Shown: in pieces, positions 35,620 through 60,477 of the stretch
How positions within the stretch are numbered: position 1 is the stretch's first letter
How the letters are laid out: every line of letters begins with the position of its first letter
Origin: Eledone cirrhosa
Taxonomy: Eukaryota
Direction of reading: 5' to 3'
DNA: 64,000 nt
Assembly (NCBI GenBank): GCA_964016885.1
Contig: CAXHJY010001285.1
Location: 1-64,000, forward strand
Notes under the pieces: generated by a model
Databases searched by the model: none
Seen by the model: only the letters and a program-made list of their open reading frames with translations
What the model was told of the DNA's origin: nothing
Program-made: the position numbers and the translations under genes

Positions 35620-37860
35620 CTTTAGGTCCATTTGGAAGCCTCAACAATGCAGATGGGTAAATCTCCGGGTAACAAGATCCGATGGTGGAGAGAGAGATGT
35701 AAGTGAATGTAGGTTGAGATATGTAGCGTGTAGAAGAATGTAGGAAAGAGTGTAAAGGATAAAAATAACACGAGATAGAGTTACCTTGGGGTAGATTTAA
35801 TTGTCCATATATATTTCGGATTCACATCCATCAACTGGGGGGCATTTTATCCGGGGGGGGGGAGGTTGTCTGTCGGAAAGGTGCGAAACGTGTCCTTCGC
35901 TGAACGTTGTTTTGAATATCTGAGTTATTCAGCAGAGCGCGCGTGTGCGTGAAATGGGGTCGGTCAAGCAGAGGTTGGCGGCCGAAATAGTTCTATCAAT
36001 TGTGGGAGTGGGGTGGCGTTAGCTGTCAGTCCATTGTATTATCTGCCGTTTAATAGTGTGTGGTTGTGATAGTATTTTCTGCCTCTTTGGTGAATGCTAC
36101 TGTGTGTATGTGTGTGCGTGTGTTGTTGTCTCGCTTGAGTGTGCGTGCGTGTGTTGTCTCGCTTGAGTGTGTGTGCGTGTGTTGTTGTCTCGCTTGAGTG
36201 TGTGTGCGTGTGTTGTTGTCTCGCTTGAGTGTGTGTGCGTGTGTTGTTGTCTCGCTTGAGTGTGTGTGTGTGTGTGTGTGCGTGTGTTGTTGTCTCGCTT
36301 GAGTGTGTGTGTGTGCGTGTGTTGTTGCCTCGTTCTTCTGTATTAGCAGTGTAGTATGTTCGTATGGTGGAGTGCTACTGTGTGTGTGTGTGTGTTGCTG
36401 TCTCGTTTGTGTGTGTGTGTGCGTGTGTTGCTGCATCGTTTGTTTACTTAAACCAACCACCTCATTTTGCTTCTCTCGGATCGGTTATTTATTTGTGGCC
36501 CTAGGCGTTTGATACAAAGTGCTTCCTTGATTGGTAATGTGCCGACGTTTCGTTCTGGCGCTAGAATTGTGACAATGGGCCTTCCGTCTTTGTTTCCGCA
36601 TTTGGTTATGTGTTTCCGGAAAGACGAGGCCCTGGTGTTAATGTGGTCCTTGATCCGGATGTGTAGCGGCCCGATTGTGCTACCCATATAGCAGTGGTTG
36701 CACTGGTTACATTCTATCTTAGACATGACGTATCTGCGTAGGCAACACTTCGTATGGCGCATCGGGCAGTTTCTGAGGGAGCATGCGTCAGTTGATTTCC
36801 CGAGTTTCCTGGAGAGGCATCTTCGCAGGGAGGGGCCCAAGTGGGCCAGGTGGATGTAGAGGCCCTCCCTCCGTATGGCGTTGCGGATAGCGTTGGTAAT
36901 ATTCTCGCCCAGGTGTGGTATTTTAAGGAAGCACTTGCCTTGGGTGTTTCTCTGCCTCTTGTGTCTGGTGTCTCTTATTCTGTTTGTGAGTGAGGCAGGG
37001 TACCCGTTCGTCTCCAGCACTTCAAGGAATCGCTTGGTATGAATGACACCACTCGCGGGATCGCTGCATCTGTTTTTAATTCGCGTGATCTCATTCGTGA
37101 TGTATCCTCTTTTAGCACTGTTGGGGAGGGCGGACTTGTAGTGGACGAACAGGTCCCTGCAGGCTGCCTTTCGGTAGAACTTGTAGTGGATCCCTCCCTG
37201 TTCCGTGATGTTGATTCGGAAGTCGAGGAGGGCAAGTGACCCGTCGTCGCTGGGTTGTTCAACACTGAAATCAATGTTCTCGTCCGTGTTGTTGAACGTC
37301 TCATAGATTCTGTTCGCCATGTCTTGGGAAAATGTGAGGAGGAGGATATCGTCCACGTACCTTGAGAAAAAGGCGACGGCGTTGGGGTGGCAGCTTTTGA
37401 GTGCCTTGTCCATGTATGAGATCGCTAGCACACTCGACAGGCTTGAGCCCATGGCAGTCCCGAGCTTTGCTGGTATGTTTGGTCAAGGAATCCGAAGTAT
37501 GTGTTGTCAACGACGATGGATAGGAGTTGGTGGATGTCAGTGATGGTGAGCCCGAAGCAGTGTAGGTCGGTGGATTGAACGCGTTCCATCAGTATATTAA
37601 CGGCCGGGAGTGCCGGGACCGAGGTGTAGAGAGTGACTACATCAAGGCTGAAGGCATATCTGTAAGCCTTTCTGGTGTCGGGATCCATTTGATGCAGGCT
37701 CTCCAACGCCTCCTCGGAACTATTAACGTGTCCCGGCAAGGTTTCTAAGATGGGTATGAGTATTCTGGTTAGGAGCCATGAAATTTTGTAGAGCGGTCCT
37801 TCCACGCTCGATACAATGGGCCTGAACTTCAGGTCGGGTCCCTGTTTGTGTGTTTTCAAA
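35620..37860 (-). mobile_element. Penelope/Poseidon-like PLE, 5'-truncated, one frameshift
   Basis: KTHK..FRPIVSS..FSLDVVTLYTSVP..YQQSSGL(P)MGSSLS..SRYVDD..LALLDF..HYKSALP..GYP..IECNQCNHCYMGST..RIKDH..IKEALCI (ORFs 37425-37859, 36448-37452). Decayed HHR-like motif ggatgtgaatcc-GAAA-tatata at ~35801-35840. Confidence 0.9.
36100..36440. repeat. ~30-bp minisatellite (gtgtgttgttgtctcgcttga)n in the PLE 3' UTR
   Basis: At least six imperfect units with variable (GT)n. Confidence 0.85.
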
Positions 37861-47760: not shown

Positions 47761-47813
<53 letters not shown>

Positions 47814-48319
47814 GGAAATTGAGTAAAATCGAATCTCTGGCGGTTTGCAAGCAAATTCGGCCTACTTATGAAATGATGAGTTAGCAAAGCACTCGATAGG
47901 TTAGGTCCTTAGAGTAATAACATGCGTTTAAATAGCTTGACAAATCGAACATTGTGGTAGGCAAAATCTAACACACATTAATATACCAAAGTAACGATAG
48001 AACTAACAGGTTGAGAAAAATACACCTGGACAAATCAAATGATTTTACGTTTAAAGTGTTTCTTTGAATCCGAAATCAAATATCAAACTTATGTGACTGG
48101 CAAGCTCGTGGTATTAATAATCGAACGGAGGATTCAGTTTTTCAACAGGTTTTTCGTTCTACCCAGAACAGGGGTGATAGGCTAAATATTGCTGCTAGAA
48201 GCAGCGTATCGTATCTATAGCTGTCACCTGTTAATTCCAGCAAGGGAAATAACCCCTGGTTTTTGGCGGGTCATTCAAAATGTTAGACAAAGGAAATATT
48301 TTAATTTCCGCTAATCATC

Positions 48320-51805: not shown

Positions 51806-52599
51806 CGACGACTGAGCTCTTGTTGTTTCAAAAGCTATTAAAGTCTGAGACTAGCTGATGAAAAGGCAAGAGCTCAGCCGTTGACATCCCGACTCTTTCA
51901 TATTACTATAATCTACTACGCCAAGTATCGAGTACTCTGGTGAGTAATCGTTTAGACAGGTTTTTACTGCATCCATATTAATTAATATATATATATATAT
52001 TAAAATGGATGCAGTTTTGTTATTAAGAAATAATATTTTGAAATTAATTAGCTGAATACATTTGTAGTACAACTTTCTCTAATTCACAAAATAGTTTTGT
52101 TCAATAATTAGATATGAATTATCTTCTTTTTTAGTCTATGTAGATTTGAAACTATTATAAATTTTCTGTGTGCCTAAATCCGTCTTAGCAAGCTGAATAG
52201 CATATATTTATACCTATTTGAAAATGTGATTTTACATTTCTCTTTAGTTTATATATCTGTTGCTTCCGGTTAAATATTCTCACTTTTCGTTTAACAAAAG
52301 GAATGTGATAATTCATTTAGTTTATATGATATTTAGTTACATAGATGTACACCAGATGTCTTAAGTTATGTTTAAGCTTAACTATAGGACATTTTATGAA
52401 AAGCGTAAGGTATTTTCTCATTTCAATGAAAGTGAAGGTGCACTGTTTTTTTGTTTTCATGTTATTTCGTCACAGTGTTTTATCAAATGCTGTGTCAGTT
52501 TTATGGTCTATCACCACATAACCAGATTACCGCCACTGGTGTCTATTCTTCGTCATGTGTAGAAGGGTCTTGGTGTTGTGACCAGTCCAGTTGTCGAAC

Positions 52600-55378: not shown

Positions 55379-55864
55379 TTTAAATACACACATACACACA
55401 CACACGCACATAAATATCTGTGTGTGAGAGTCCTGGATTCAATAATAGATAACCACAGTAAGTAATTTACTCAATAAATTAATAGAGTATATACAACACA
55501 ATTCAATCTAAAATATCTTCTACATGACTAGAACTGTTCCATTCAAAGGTAACAGTTATAGTCCTGTAGTCCTTTAGAGGTCATTTCTAGATTATATATA
55601 TATATATATATATATACATGTAAAGTTAATATTTAAAATTGTTGGGTTACAACTAGTAAATATTTATAACTGATATAAAAGCACTCGACAAATACTTGGA
55701 GTATATTTACAATATTAAATAAATATAGTGTAAGTTTTATAAATACTAATACATTAAAACATAGGGTTTTCTACGCCTCGAATATGTCTGGCTATTTTTA
55801 AATTTTTCTCTCTCTATATCTCTCTATATCTCTCTATATATCTCCCTTACATTAATACTTGAGC

Positions 55865-55899
<35 letters not shown>

Positions 55900-56266
55900 A
55901 TGCATCATTGATACACTTACTCAAAATGACCTCCCACTACCTAATTTTTCTATATCTATATTTATATATGTATCTATCTCTATTTCCTCTCTCTCTCTAT
56001 ATATATATATATATCTCTTTCGGTCTCTTTACATGAAGCTCTTCGCTTTATCTATTTTTCCATCTCTCTATTTTGTCCCATGCATTTCTTCTTTTTCTTC
56101 TTTTTCTTCCTTTTCTTCGTTTTGTCTTTCTTTCTTTCTTATTTCCCTCTTTTCTCTCTCTCTTTCTTTCTCTCTGTATTTTCACTGCTAGAGTGAACCT
56201 CTTCAAATGAAGTTGATGTTTATTACGGTATGTCGAATATATTTATCTATAAAACTGTTTATATTG

Positions 56267-56332
56267 TATTTTGTCTGATGAAGGCATAGCATATTGTTAA
56301 TATGATATCCCCGAAATATATATAATGAAATA
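56267..56332 (+). ncRNA. Type-I hammerhead ribozyme, 5' pLTR
   Basis: tattttgt-CTGATGA-aggcatagcatattgttaatatgatatcccc-GAAA-tatata-TA-atgaaata. Confidence 0.85.
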
Positions 56333-56512
56333 GATATGGTTTTATAAATATAGTTTTCCATTTATTTAATATTGTAAATATACTCCAAGTATTTGTCGAG
56401 TGCTTTTATATCAGTTATAAATATTTACTAGTTGTAACCCAACAATTTTAAATATTAACTTTACATGTATCTTGCTCCAATACTGTTGAGCGCTTTATAT
56501 TATAACTGAAAA

Positions 56513-58725
56513 ATGGAATTCTTTAAGATTACTTCCTCTCTAAAAGACATACCTCTACCTAGAAACAAAGACTTTGTAAAACAACTAATAGATAAATCTG
56601 ACTCTTTTATAAGGAGAATCAGGTGGCGTGCATTCCACTTTGATAAATTTAATGCAGACGAAAATATCTCGGACTTAAACAAAGTTTTCAAATCTAAAAG
56701 AAATCCACCCCCTAACAAACTTTTATCTGACTTTGAAAACGATATAATTTCTATCATACAAGGGGTCAAATTCAAGAGAAACTTTAAAGGCCAGGAATAT
56801 CTGAAAGGCATTAAGGATAACATTGAGAGCTTAGAGAAAACTGAGAAGATCTTGGTGAAATCTGACAAGACCAACAACCTCTATGGAGTGCAGAAAGACA
56901 TGTATAATGGCCTCATACTGAAAGAGCTGAGGAAAAAATACAAGGTAGCAGATAAGACCGAACTTGTGAAAATGAATGTTGAAGCATCTTGTATAATGCA
57001 TGAGTTGGAAATTGAGAACAGAACACAACCTTTCGTGCCCAGGAAACCGAAGATCAATATGAAGGACCACAAGAGGAATTTTGAGATTGACCTGCCAGTT
57101 AGATTAATCGCACCTTCAAAATCGGACCTGGGCAAATTAAGCAAAAACATTCTTGACAGGGTGATACTGCAAATTAAGAACTTGGATTATGTATCTAACC
57201 TGAGCTTGTGGAAGGGAACTGGAGAGGTTGTTGAGTGGTTTAGGCAAATTAAATATGACAATAATAATAGGTTTATTCAACTTGATATAGCTAACTATTA
57301 TTCTTCTATTACCCCTAGTCTACTAAATAAGGCACTAAATTACGCATTCAAACATACGGACCTAACTAGCAAAGAAATGCATATTATATTATCGGCTAGG
57401 AAAACTTTGATAGAATTTGATGACAAATTATGGACCAGAGCAGATAGAGATAGCAATTTTGACATAACTATGGGATCTTCCGACTCAGCTCAGTAACTGA
57501 CCTTGTGGGCTTATTTTTAATCAATTCGCTACATAGGAAAATACCTGGTACTACCGGAGGTTTATATAGGGATGACATGCTTTTACTTATTAATAATAAT
57601 AACCCTGAACTAAATAGAAAATGTAAACAAATTACAAAATTTTTTAATTACTTTAACCTTAAAATAGAAATTGAGAACAACCATAGAATAGTCAATTTCC
57701 TAGATATAACATTAAATCTCAACACATGTCTCCACTATCCTTTTCACAAGTTGAATGAAAACTTAAACTATGTCAACTTTAACTCTAACCACCCCAGATC
57801 TGTCAAAAACACTATAGTAAACTCAGTCCAAAAACGTATCTCTAGGATCTCGTCGAATAGAAAGATTTTTGACGAAAAGGCCCAATACTATAATGATGCA
57901 CTAGCTAGGGCAGGGTATGCTGATAAGATTGTGTACATAGATAATGATAAACAAACTAAACAAAGTAACAACTTTTTTAATTATGGCAACAACATTAACA
58001 ACTATAATAGAAAGCATTACAATAATTCCAAAGGACAAAAAAGAAATAGAACTAGGAACATAATTTGGTTTGCCCCCCCTTTCTCACTAAACATTAAAAC
58101 CCACATCGCTAAATTATTTTTCAAAGCTCTTGATAATCGCTTCCCTAGAACACATAGGTACCACTCAATCTTCAATAGGCATACAATTAAATTAACCTAC
58201 TCATCCACCAAAAATTTAGCACAAAATATTAATAGAATAAATAATAGGAACTTAAAACCTACTGATAATAGCATAAATAATATACAAGTTAACAAATGTA
58301 ACTGTAGAGATAGATCTAAATGTCCGTTAAATAACAACTGCTTAGTTAAAAATATAGTATACAATTGTAATGTTAATACTGACTCTAATTCTTTTAACTA
58401 CGTCGGTTCCACATCGACGGAATTTAAACTTCGCTATAATAACCACAAGAACTCTTTCACAGATCCAAATAAAAAATCTTCAACGGCACTATCAGGTGTA
58501 CTCTGGCAACTTAAGCTAGATAACGTTAGATATTCGACGGCTTGGAATATAGTCTCAAGAGGGATTCCTTTTAATTCATCCTCTGAGACATGTGACCTCT
58601 GCGCAGAGGAGATAGTCTTTATACTAAAATCTAAAAATTCCCTTAACCTACGGACAAATTTATTCAGTTGTTGCAAACATAGATTAAACTCAACGTTTAA
58701 ATATAAATTTAAATTTAAAATGTAG
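56513..58725 (+). pseudogene. PLE RT and GIY-YIG polyprotein (~737 aa) with one 1-bp frameshift at ~57493
   Basis: RRIRWRA, VKSDKT, KDHK..VRLI.P, LDIANYYSSI, FDITMGSSDSAQ|(V)TDLVG, GGLYRDD, CNCRDRSKC, YVGST, CDLC, CCKH. Restoring one G (cag gta act) joins the two ORFs. Confidence 0.92.
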
Positions 58726-59878
58726 TATATTTAGTTTGATTTATATTTATATGAGAACTAGCCGATAAATCTTTTGATTCCTAAATCTTTGATTCCCTCT
58801 TTTTACTCTTTTTATTGTTTATTTTATTTTATTTATTTTTATTTTTATTTTTATTTTTATTTTTATTTTTATTTTTATCTAAACATTCCTCATGAAAAAT
58901 TAAGCTACCCTAAAAGCCGATGCTCCAAATTTTCTGAATTAACCTTACACTTGATAAACTTATATATTAAATATAGGAACATATGTAGACATTATTGGAC
59001 ATCATAATCTTTTTTGCGATATTCCTTGCTAGATGTGATTTGATAGATAATTTTTGGCTTTGTCTTGTAGTGAACTTGGCAATATATTGTCAATTAACCT
59101 TGAAGGGTTGTTCTTTGTGGTTTATTTTTATTTTCATTTTTATTTTTATTTTCATTTTTATTTTTATTTTTATTTTTATTCTTTTAGTATTGTAGTATTC
59201 TATAATATTTTTATATTTTTATTTTTTATTTTTTATATGTAAATTTTTTTTACATGTAAATTTTTATTTTTAAATTTTTATTTTTAATATTTTTAATATT
59301 TTTATATGTAAAGTTTTAATACGTAATATTTTTAATACGTAGTATTTTTAATATGCAATATTTTTATTATGTAATATTCTTTCGTAATATTCTTTTTTAG
59401 TTTTCTATTCTATATTTTTATATTTTTATATATTTTTACTTATTATCATTATTATTGTTATCTCTGCTTATAATATAATATATATTTTCGATTAGTATAT
59501 TGAAATCTGCTCTCTATTTCTGCTTGATAGATAATCTTGTAGAGTAATCGCAAGAATAATAATACGCTCAAATTTTTATACCACATTGAGAATGTTTTCC
59601 GGTAACTTTGAATTTGCGGAGTGAATCAGTTGGATTCACATAGACATATGAATTTTTTTTTTAAAAACTAAACATAAGATAATGAATTTTCACGCATTGT
59701 GAATACTTGTTTCATTCAGGAATACTGATATTTACAATATAGTGTAAGTTTTATAAATACTAATACATTAAAACATAGGGTTTTCTACGCCTCGAATATG
59801 TCTGGCTATTTTTAAATTTTTCTCTCTATATATCTCTCTATATCTCTCTATATATCTCCCTTACATTAATACTTGAGC

Positions 59879-59913
<35 letters not shown>

Positions 59914-60274
59914 ATGCATCATTGATACACTTACTCAAAATGACCTCCCACTACCTAATTTTTCTATATCTATATTTATATATGTATCTATCTCTATTTC
60001 CTCTCTCTCTATATATATATATCTCTTTCGGTCTCTTTACATGAAGCTCTTCGCTTTATCTATTTTTCCATCTCTCTATTTTGTCCCATGCATTTCTTCT
60101 TTTTCTTCTTTTTCTTCCTTTTCTTCGTTTTGTCTTTCTTTCTTTCTTATTTCCCTCTTTTCTCTCTCTCTTTCTTTCTCTCTGTATTTTCACTGCTAGA
60201 GTGAACCTCTTCAAATGAAGTTGATGTTTATTACGGTATGTCGAATATATTTATCTATAAAACTGTTTATATTG

Positions 60275-60340
60275 TATTTTGTCTGATGAAGGCATAGCAT
60301 ATTGTTAATATGATATCCCCGAAATATATATAATGAAATA
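60275..60340 (+). ncRNA. Type-I hammerhead ribozyme, 3' pLTR
   Basis: Same sequence as 56267-56332. Confidence 0.85.
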
Positions 60341-60378
60341 GATATGGTTTTATAAATATAGTTTTCCATTTATTTAAT

Positions 60379-60477
<99 letters not shown>

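Follow-up and report, generated by a model that had tools for sequence, protein, structure and literature searches.

The Penelope-like elements (PLEs) of the Hydra clade carry in their 5'-UTR a 25-nt structured motif, hereafter the box, that is present in two copies, and most of the insertion ends that were scored fall a few nucleotides upstream of one or the other copy. These elements are represented in the window, the 64,000-nt stretch of Eledone cirrhosa DNA that was analyzed (contig CAXHJY010001285.1), where the order of features is hammerhead, box 1, box 2 and ATG. We suggest that each box is probably an RNA binding site for the RT-endonuclease of the element that sets priming on nicked (TA)n, and that the long-known PLE 'tail' is the stretch between the two sites.

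The elements in the window are Hydra-clade PLEs. Members of this clade are characterized by an RWK motif, a DKG sequence changed to DKT, a CxCx5C linker, as well as a GIY-YIG domain at the C-terminus that lacks CCHH; they insert into (TA)n, carry hammerheads, and share the inverted 5' copy and a tail that in many cases is present at just one of the ends (Craig et al. 2021, PMC8557442). The translation of the window ORF contains RWR, DKT and CNCRDRSKC (CxCx5C) and, by eye, no CCHH, alignments of homologs exhibit these motifs as well, and the window elements are likewise inserted into (TA)n. The nearest named protein is that of Argonauta hians (41% identity), and no domain match was obtained with Pfam for the Hydra ORF pieces. 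An Rfam gathering scan of the window gave no match, hammerheads included. The hammerheads at 56275 and 60283 are candidates that were matched by the pattern of their core and have a long stem II; otherwise Rfam yielded a single chance match (E 6.9) outside the boxes and no known family for the box region. The coordinates of all features are collected in Table 1. Element A had been called intact in a preliminary description of this DNA, which was made from its letters only; its ORF is in fact split into two frames.

Table 1. Hydra-clade elements in the window and the features assigned to them.
Feature	Position	Strand	Basis or remark
Inverted 5' piece of element A: box 1 + tail, ends in (TA)n at site 2	55614-55724	-	100% identity to 56360-56467
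5' pLTR of element A (partial tandem of 3' end)	55722-56376	+	pieces 100% identical to 3' pLTR
Hammerhead core CTGATGA...GAAA in 5' pLTR	56275-56316	+	pattern scan; second copy at 60283
End site 1, where the pLTR stops, 5 nt ahead of box 1	56376	+	3' copy ends attgta, then (TA)n, at 60384
Box 1: ACUC/GAGU stem, inner stem, UC bulge, 3' GCU	56382-56404	+	pattern; model E 0.61
GTTG-loop-CAAC hairpin, local to the families of this host	56431-56443	+	appears in predicted fold
End site 2, where the tail stops, 3 nt ahead of box 2	56470	+	match stops; reads, contig loose ends
Box 2: GCUC/GAGC stem, inner stem, UU bulge, 3' GCU	56474-56494	+	model E 1.9e-5
Hydra-clade RT + GIY-YIG ORF, two frames, break near 57463-57496	56513-58725	+	motifs RWR, DKT, CxCx5C; homologs
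3' pLTR, ends at site 1, without tail	59736-60384	+	identity to 5' pLTR
Element A2: inverted box 1 + tail	22533-22624	-	direct 3' end at 25555 = site 1
Element B: inverted box 1 + tail + pLTR piece	25585-25748	-	direct 3' end 27321
Element C, fold-back	10720-11222	.	inverted arm: box 1 (10773-10815) + tail
D: box + 77-nt tail, no recognisable PLE body	47811-47918	-	pattern match
Element E: hammerhead, box (14478-14505), tail, direct orientation at 3' end	14371-14562	+	pattern scan
Element F: hammerhead core + degenerate box (51914-51936)	51864-51985	+	model did not recover box
Box-like site	27948-27985	-	model E 0.0057; just after 277-nt direct repeat (27996-28271)

The preliminary description had drawn attention to five insertions that begin, next to (TA)n, with a common motif, and the five segments were found at the positions that it gave (10721-10819, 22533-22620, 25585-25676, 47811-47918, 55614-55710), each consisting, in element sense, of the motif, a stretch of 54-77 nt and (TA)n. 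The pattern TACTC-N-TCGAGTGC matches at 10774-10816, 25649-25672, 47889-47916 and 55681-55703 on the minus strand and at 56381-56403 on the plus strand, and none of 100 shuffled windows contained any match, as compared with these five in the real one; the copy at 22591-22614 reads TTGAGTGCT and is one base off the pattern. The five segments are not all independent of each other: that at 55614 is 91% alike to that at 22533, and that at 25585 is 82% identical to the source over 89 nt, so that three of the five are close kin. Neither a PLE ORF nor a hammerhead could be recognised alongside the segment at 47811, which is thus only a putative inverted 5' end. The source of the inverted piece in element A had been placed correctly, since 55617-55724 is 100% identical to 56467-56360, as had the stop of the 3' pLTR at 60384; identity of the inverted piece breaks off 3 nt before box 2, and the 5' pLTR of this element begins at the copy of 59736.

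Two further proposals have to be amended. The extension had been thought never to be copied at the 3' end of an element, yet it is present in direct orientation at 14477-14505, past the hammerhead at 14371, and the tail is thus not confined to inverted 5' ends. A GTTG-loop-CAAC hairpin is indeed found in four of the five segments; with 0 of 25 linkers elsewhere and 0 of 44 regions after box 1 containing it, it was rejected as a feature of the clade and is confined to the families of this host. A second box (56474-56494), recognized in a relaxed scan and with a G-C instead of an A-U outer pair, had been overlooked. This box 2 is situated 18 nt upstream of the ATG and is the top window match of a covariance model that was made from 17 boxes without any window loci.

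Several other observations on the window are recorded here in their own right. Five more candidate boxes (16977, 28271, 42105, 42428 and 61018) were discarded, being degenerate or attributable to chance. The 277-nt repeat next to the box-like site has a second copy at 27425-27701 that ends in (TA)n; the stretch 27425-28271 (minus strand) forms an ORF-less unit consisting of the repeat, which carries a degenerate hammerhead-like stem, the box-like site, about 250 nt, the repeat and (TA)n, and is possibly a non-autonomous Hydra derivative. Element F is inverted relative to a minus-strand Hydra ORF piece. Hammerhead-like motifs in which CTTGA(G/A)AAG replaces CTGANGA occur at Hydra-type 3' ends at 16818 and 50969 (plus strand). 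In the two unrelated Hydra copies at 14847 and 22615, the 5' truncation falls each time no more than about 35 nt upstream of the GLYRDD codons, which reflects either chance or a truncation hotspot. PLE remnants of other clades are present at 36448-37482 and 11931-12794 (both minus strand) with no box match nearby, and the covariance model found no match in the first of these. Different Hydra families abut end to end within the same (TA)n run at 25555-25585 of the window and, outside of it, in L005:2537-2688 and L063:2356-2495; each insertion provides a target for the next. Finally, a 137-nt unique island is repeated (99%) at 5413-6220 and 8700-9344 within an 11.7-kb TA-rich array, which shows segmental amplification inside the array.

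The box is not a peculiarity of this host. A collection of 87 loci with related ORFs was assembled, 77 of which were kept from 545 confirmed in metagenomes and 10 of which came from genome bins; together they represent 75 families at 80% identity. In the 48 loci in which the sequence ahead of the ORF start amounts to 100 nt or more (8795 nt), 64 boxes were detected, as compared with 0.35 expected by shuffling, and the enrichment asked for in the preliminary description is thus evident. With the strict descriptor, 25 of these upstream regions contain two boxes, 14 contain one, and nine contain none; several of the nine were recovered by looser searches, with L072 remaining without a box. The sense strands of the ORFs contain 19 boxes in 174,893 nt. 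A plain MAFFT alignment of 51 boxes left the variable loop ungapped, and anchored counting was used instead, along with the covariance model, which was built from 17 equal-length boxes from outside the window and has 135 matches in 67 of the 87 loci (counted from the table). The arrangement in the other families is rather uniform: the GAAA of the hammerhead is 37-71 nt from box 1, the two boxes are 48-83 nt apart (92 nt in the window), and box 2 precedes the ORF start by 12-60 nt, mostly by about 20 nt. A search of viral contigs for relatives found none. Ten of the Hydra-clade loci (L078-L087) reside inside bacterial genome bins and are most likely animal host DNA carried into bacterial assemblies. 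In L026 (324-398), an inverted box lies about 10 nt from the direct box 2 at the 5' end of a full-length ORF.

The box can also be seen by eye in four of six published Hydra consensi, and twice in two of them (File S7, PMC8557442). The sea cucumber element Hydra-1_Ajap carries it twice in the 5'-UTR, the copepod element Hydra-1_Crog has variant forms in the 3' tail and at the 5' start, and Hydra-2_Amil and Hydra-2_Ajap have it in their tails; by eye, no box was found in the incomplete, tail-less consensus of Hydra-1_Amil and no clear one at the 5' end of Hydra-1_Obim. With regard to other PLE clades (Naiad, Chlamys, Poseidon), six exact box 9-mers gave four matches in the six Hydra consensi and three elsewhere in the archive of PMC8557442; none of the latter three was seen with a matching left arm, and matches across line ends may be missed in these counts. 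A duplicated motif of 25 nt is kept in hosts that belong to the molluscs, echinoderms, cnidarians and crustaceans, with flanks that cannot be aligned. Its conservation is far above that of the surrounding sequence, and none of the three outcomes by which the preliminary description would have been refuted (no enrichment, no covariation, conservation no higher than in the neighbouring UTR) was thus observed.

The box consists of a 4-bp outer stem (GCUC/GAGC; ACUC/GAGU in box 1 of the window), a 2-nt bulge beginning with U, an inner stem, and a 3' NCU, with its arms being 8-20 nt apart (80 family-level cases). The fold was assessed on boxes chosen by their outer stem alone, one per family and box (n=80). 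Positions 1-4 of the inner stem are paired in 97, 76, 78 and 67% of the boxes versus 76, 39, 39 and 39% of shuffled ones, and not one of 2000 shuffles reached the observed value at any of the four positions. This pairing is tied to a bulge of precisely 2 nt; bulges of 0, 1, 3 or 4 nt gave nothing. The first inner pair is C-G in 53 and U-A in 23 of the 80 boxes, and each of the four Watson-Crick types occurs at the second. When mapped on a tree that was made from 49 protein pieces and comprises only the fetched loci and the piece from the window, the inner pairs of box 1 switch their Watson-Crick type at least 7, 15 and 4 times, and shared descent does not, therefore, account for the covariation that the preliminary description had asked for. 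The outer stem covaries as well (G-C in 76 and U-A in four of 80 boxes; A-U in the window), and a change from U-A to A-U is seen in two rows of an alignment that was fitted with the model and is thus biased towards the structure. The first base of the bulge is U in 78 of 80 boxes, and ACU follows the stem in 65 of 80. A further, fifth pair of the outer stem, which would be U-G in the window, was discarded, as the position pairs in only 32 of 80 boxes.

The stems are weak, with a mean of -4.4 kcal/mol (-4.6 for the antisense strand), and RNAfold prefers a different hairpin for box 1 of the window on its own; these predictions fit a shape that would be stabilized by a protein. Internal wobbles number seven G-U versus one A-C, leaning to the RNA strand (p 0.07). 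A long-range stem is also predicted in the window at 56412-56510, where TCAGTTATAA would pair with TTATAACTGA to enclose the linker hairpin and box 2; this predicted domain (z -2.5) ends 2 nt before the ATG and was not seen to be conserved.

The connection between the boxes and the ends of the elements was examined under a prediction, set down before the outside loci were fetched, by which every end should be located immediately 5' of the box that belongs to it. Junctions were counted in families with a full UTR and another copy, and ten contig ends were left out. Outside the window, 15 of the 20 remaining junctions are located 2-7 nt before a box (p ~3e-12 versus a uniform null), four of them at box 1 and eleven at box 2, and five are found elsewhere. 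A wider scan placed 31 of 50 stops 1-9 nt from a box, with 25 of these 31 ending in TA or AT; the other 19 are not next to a box. Some of the exceptions in the two counts are divergence points or inversion joints rather than ends. The 12 nt before the boxes are furthermore rich in UA: TATA or ATAT is present there in 27 of 41 cases for box 1 and in 16 of 36 for box 2, as compared with only 2-6 of 35-40 in intervals further upstream, and 0 and 4 of 2000 base shuffles, respectively, reach the observed values. At both end sites, reads of the window family, which come from the species label in which the element is best represented, run off the reference and into (TA)n. Near site 1, 7700 and 8723 RAD reads depart into the pLTR end plus a TA run, while loose ends of the contig into (TA)n lie near 56454; read depth drops 33-35-fold beyond, over box 2, a figure that is not a copy number, as RAD depth was used only for the positions at which reads exit. 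The central proposal of the preliminary description, a conserved and structured cis-element that adjoins a UA-rich site, is common to different families and is tied to element ends, is thereby upheld. The idea of one motif that defines both start points is borne out with regard to the tie to both ends, and has to be modified in that there are two boxes, one for each end site.

Some full-length copies, in L086 (3876-3918), L003 (460-502) and L014 (950-1005), themselves start within a run of (TA)n that is 0-13 nt away from the box that follows. Such 5' ends at boxes may arise from stalling of the RT at a protein-bound upstream box, or from top-strand joining at this position.

We consider it likely that the boxes tell the enzyme where to start copying, which would explain the one-sided tail. 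The protein would bind the RNA of the box by way of the near-invariant C-G pairs, the bulge that begins with U and the ACU on the 3' side, with the inner stem-loop being free in sequence and length. The GIY-YIG domain would then nick (TA)n, and the nicked end would pair over 2-6 nt with the UA patch 5' of the box to prime cDNA synthesis. A start at box 1 would lead to a copy ending at the pLTR boundary, and one at box 2 to a copy that also includes box 1 and the linker, i.e., the 'tail', while box 2 would never be copied from its own start. Equating genomic ends with starts of reverse transcription is, in this scheme, an analogy carried over from another clade.

As the main rival, the boxes might act as DNA: the endonuclease would recognise a box in the double-stranded element or in a cDNA hairpin and cut a few bases beside it, and the two ends would reflect the resolution of a tandem or circular intermediate instead of starts of reverse transcription. 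For the recognition and cleavage of plasmid DNA, the endonuclease of Drosophila virilis required the tail (recounted in PMC11167929), the tail is ascribed to endonuclease-mediated resolution in PMC8557442, the antisense strand of the box folds as well as the sense strand, and a cut cannot be distinguished from a start on the basis of genomic ends. However, arms 8-20 nt apart, a covarying inner stem and a one-sided bulge would all be needless for a protein that binds double strands, and the tail ends of the anole element match RT starts mapped in vitro (PMC11167929). The spacing of the arms, together with the lean of the internal wobbles to the RNA strand (7 to 1), argues against this DNA-based explanation, which we regard as unlikely.

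Less probable still is a role of the boxes in translation or RNP assembly, as an operator or a cap-independent start after hammerhead cleavage, with ends lying near the boxes only because the RT primes at the nearest unstructured UA patch. The position of box 2, mostly about 20 nt before the ATG, would suit such a function, and with (TA)n as the target the UA patches might by themselves suffice to determine the ends. Against this, box 1 is about 100 nt away from the ATG, is equally conserved and has an end site of its own, and the UA patches are kept beside each box and not elsewhere in the linker, so that patch and box form one unit. Bulged hairpins can serve to guide a nuclease, and the short fixed distance between end and box would accord with boxes that direct a host or self cut in the RNA a few bases upstream, after which the RT starts at an ordinary RNA 3' end; this is very improbable, however, as the anole protein starts internally on uncut RNA (PMC11167929), no Rfam family matches the region, and after a cut on its 5' side the box would remain with the uncopied part of the RNA.

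If the boxes are sites at which the RT-endonuclease is loaded for priming, their duplication invites a more speculative step. In nine of 11 two-ended insertions, which were scored by eye and partly by distance where box 2 was out of view, opposite sites are used at the two ends (p 0.03 versus independence), a count that is suggestive only. Of the elements in the window, A, A2, B and C have their tail on the inverted arm, and the direct arm stops at site 1, with the direct 3' end of element B lying 3 nt before the box and the direct arm of element C stopping just before it. Different sites are likewise used at the two ends of L061, L084, two L081 fold-backs and one L087 copy, with the tail sitting on the direct arm in L061, L084 and L087; the same site is found at both ends in the main element of L081 and in L085 (two of 11). 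We tentatively envision, as a possibility somewhat short of an even chance, that the two boxes load two RT-endonuclease subunits, which nick both (TA)n strands and prime two opposite cDNAs, one per box; one direct and one inverted cDNA with a tail at one end would result. This suggestion is based on the nine-of-11 count and on the anole Poseidon element PAc, for which nicking of two strands and a predicted dimer are described (PMC11167929), and on nothing else; if true, it would account for both the inverted 5' copy and the one-sided tail.

PAc is in several respects the closest known system. In vitro mapping yielded two RT start sites that flank its tail, and RNA 3' of these start sites is required (Frangieh et al. 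2024, PMC11167929). Both systems thus have two discrete end sites downstream of the pLTR hammerhead with the tail between them, an AT-rich target, and a need for 3' RNA, which in the case of the Hydra elements is part of our proposal. In contrast, PAc starts in an AC-rich stem-loop 111-118 nt into the ORF, no recognition motif is defined in the passages of that report on which we draw, and the printed PAc start segment contains no box, whereas the Hydra sites are in the 5'-UTR, each with a copy of one clade-wide motif. The pairing between UA patch and target proposed here also differs from the priming of PAc, which proceeds without homology to the target (PMC11167929). The PLE tail has been described as a 30-40-bp piece that is often present at one end only (PMC8557442); the Hydra elements equally have an optional extension past the pLTR, often at one end, but their tails, measured from box to box, are longer.

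The preliminary description had also considered a template boundary. The telomerase template boundary element and SL5 of DRT10 are likewise small stem-loops next to a template of a PLE-related RT, but they are positioned 5' of the template and stop synthesis (PMC12632851). The Hydra box, in contrast, is found on the 3' side of the start point, and in tail-bearing copies synthesis from the second site has passed through box 1; the box is therefore not a boundary of the telomerase type. The R2 3'-UTR, DIVa of group II introns and epsilon of the hepadnaviruses are cis-acting RNA signals that bind the RT of the element itself. Like the putative role of the Hydra box, they are RNA structures that recruit their own RT and fix the start of copying; they are, however, single signals, whereas the Hydra box is duplicated, resides in the 5'-UTR of the next tandem unit, and offers two alternative starts.

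The preliminary description had taken its motif to be new. This applies, as it seems, to the box, while the extension in which it lies is the published PLE 'tail' (PMC8557442; PMC11167929). No description of the box was found in Rfam or in the text of the accessible papers that were searched. The passages of PMC8557442 cited here name the tail and mention no conserved motif in it, yet the boxes are visible in the consensus file of the paper itself. The class of elements and the tail were hence already known, and what appears to be new is a duplicated, covarying box with a one-to-one link to the ends.

The choice of the start, the tails and the inverted ends of Penelope-like elements have been named as an open question (PMC8557442). 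The box provides an exact target for mutation, transplant and structural work, defines the true element boundaries for annotation, and offers a minimal RNA partner for an RT that is close to telomerase. Should the two boxes indeed prime two opposite cDNAs, reverse transcription could be started in any RNA by the 25-nt box as a portable signal, and such a portable box would be a means of starting target-primed reverse transcription inside an RNA.
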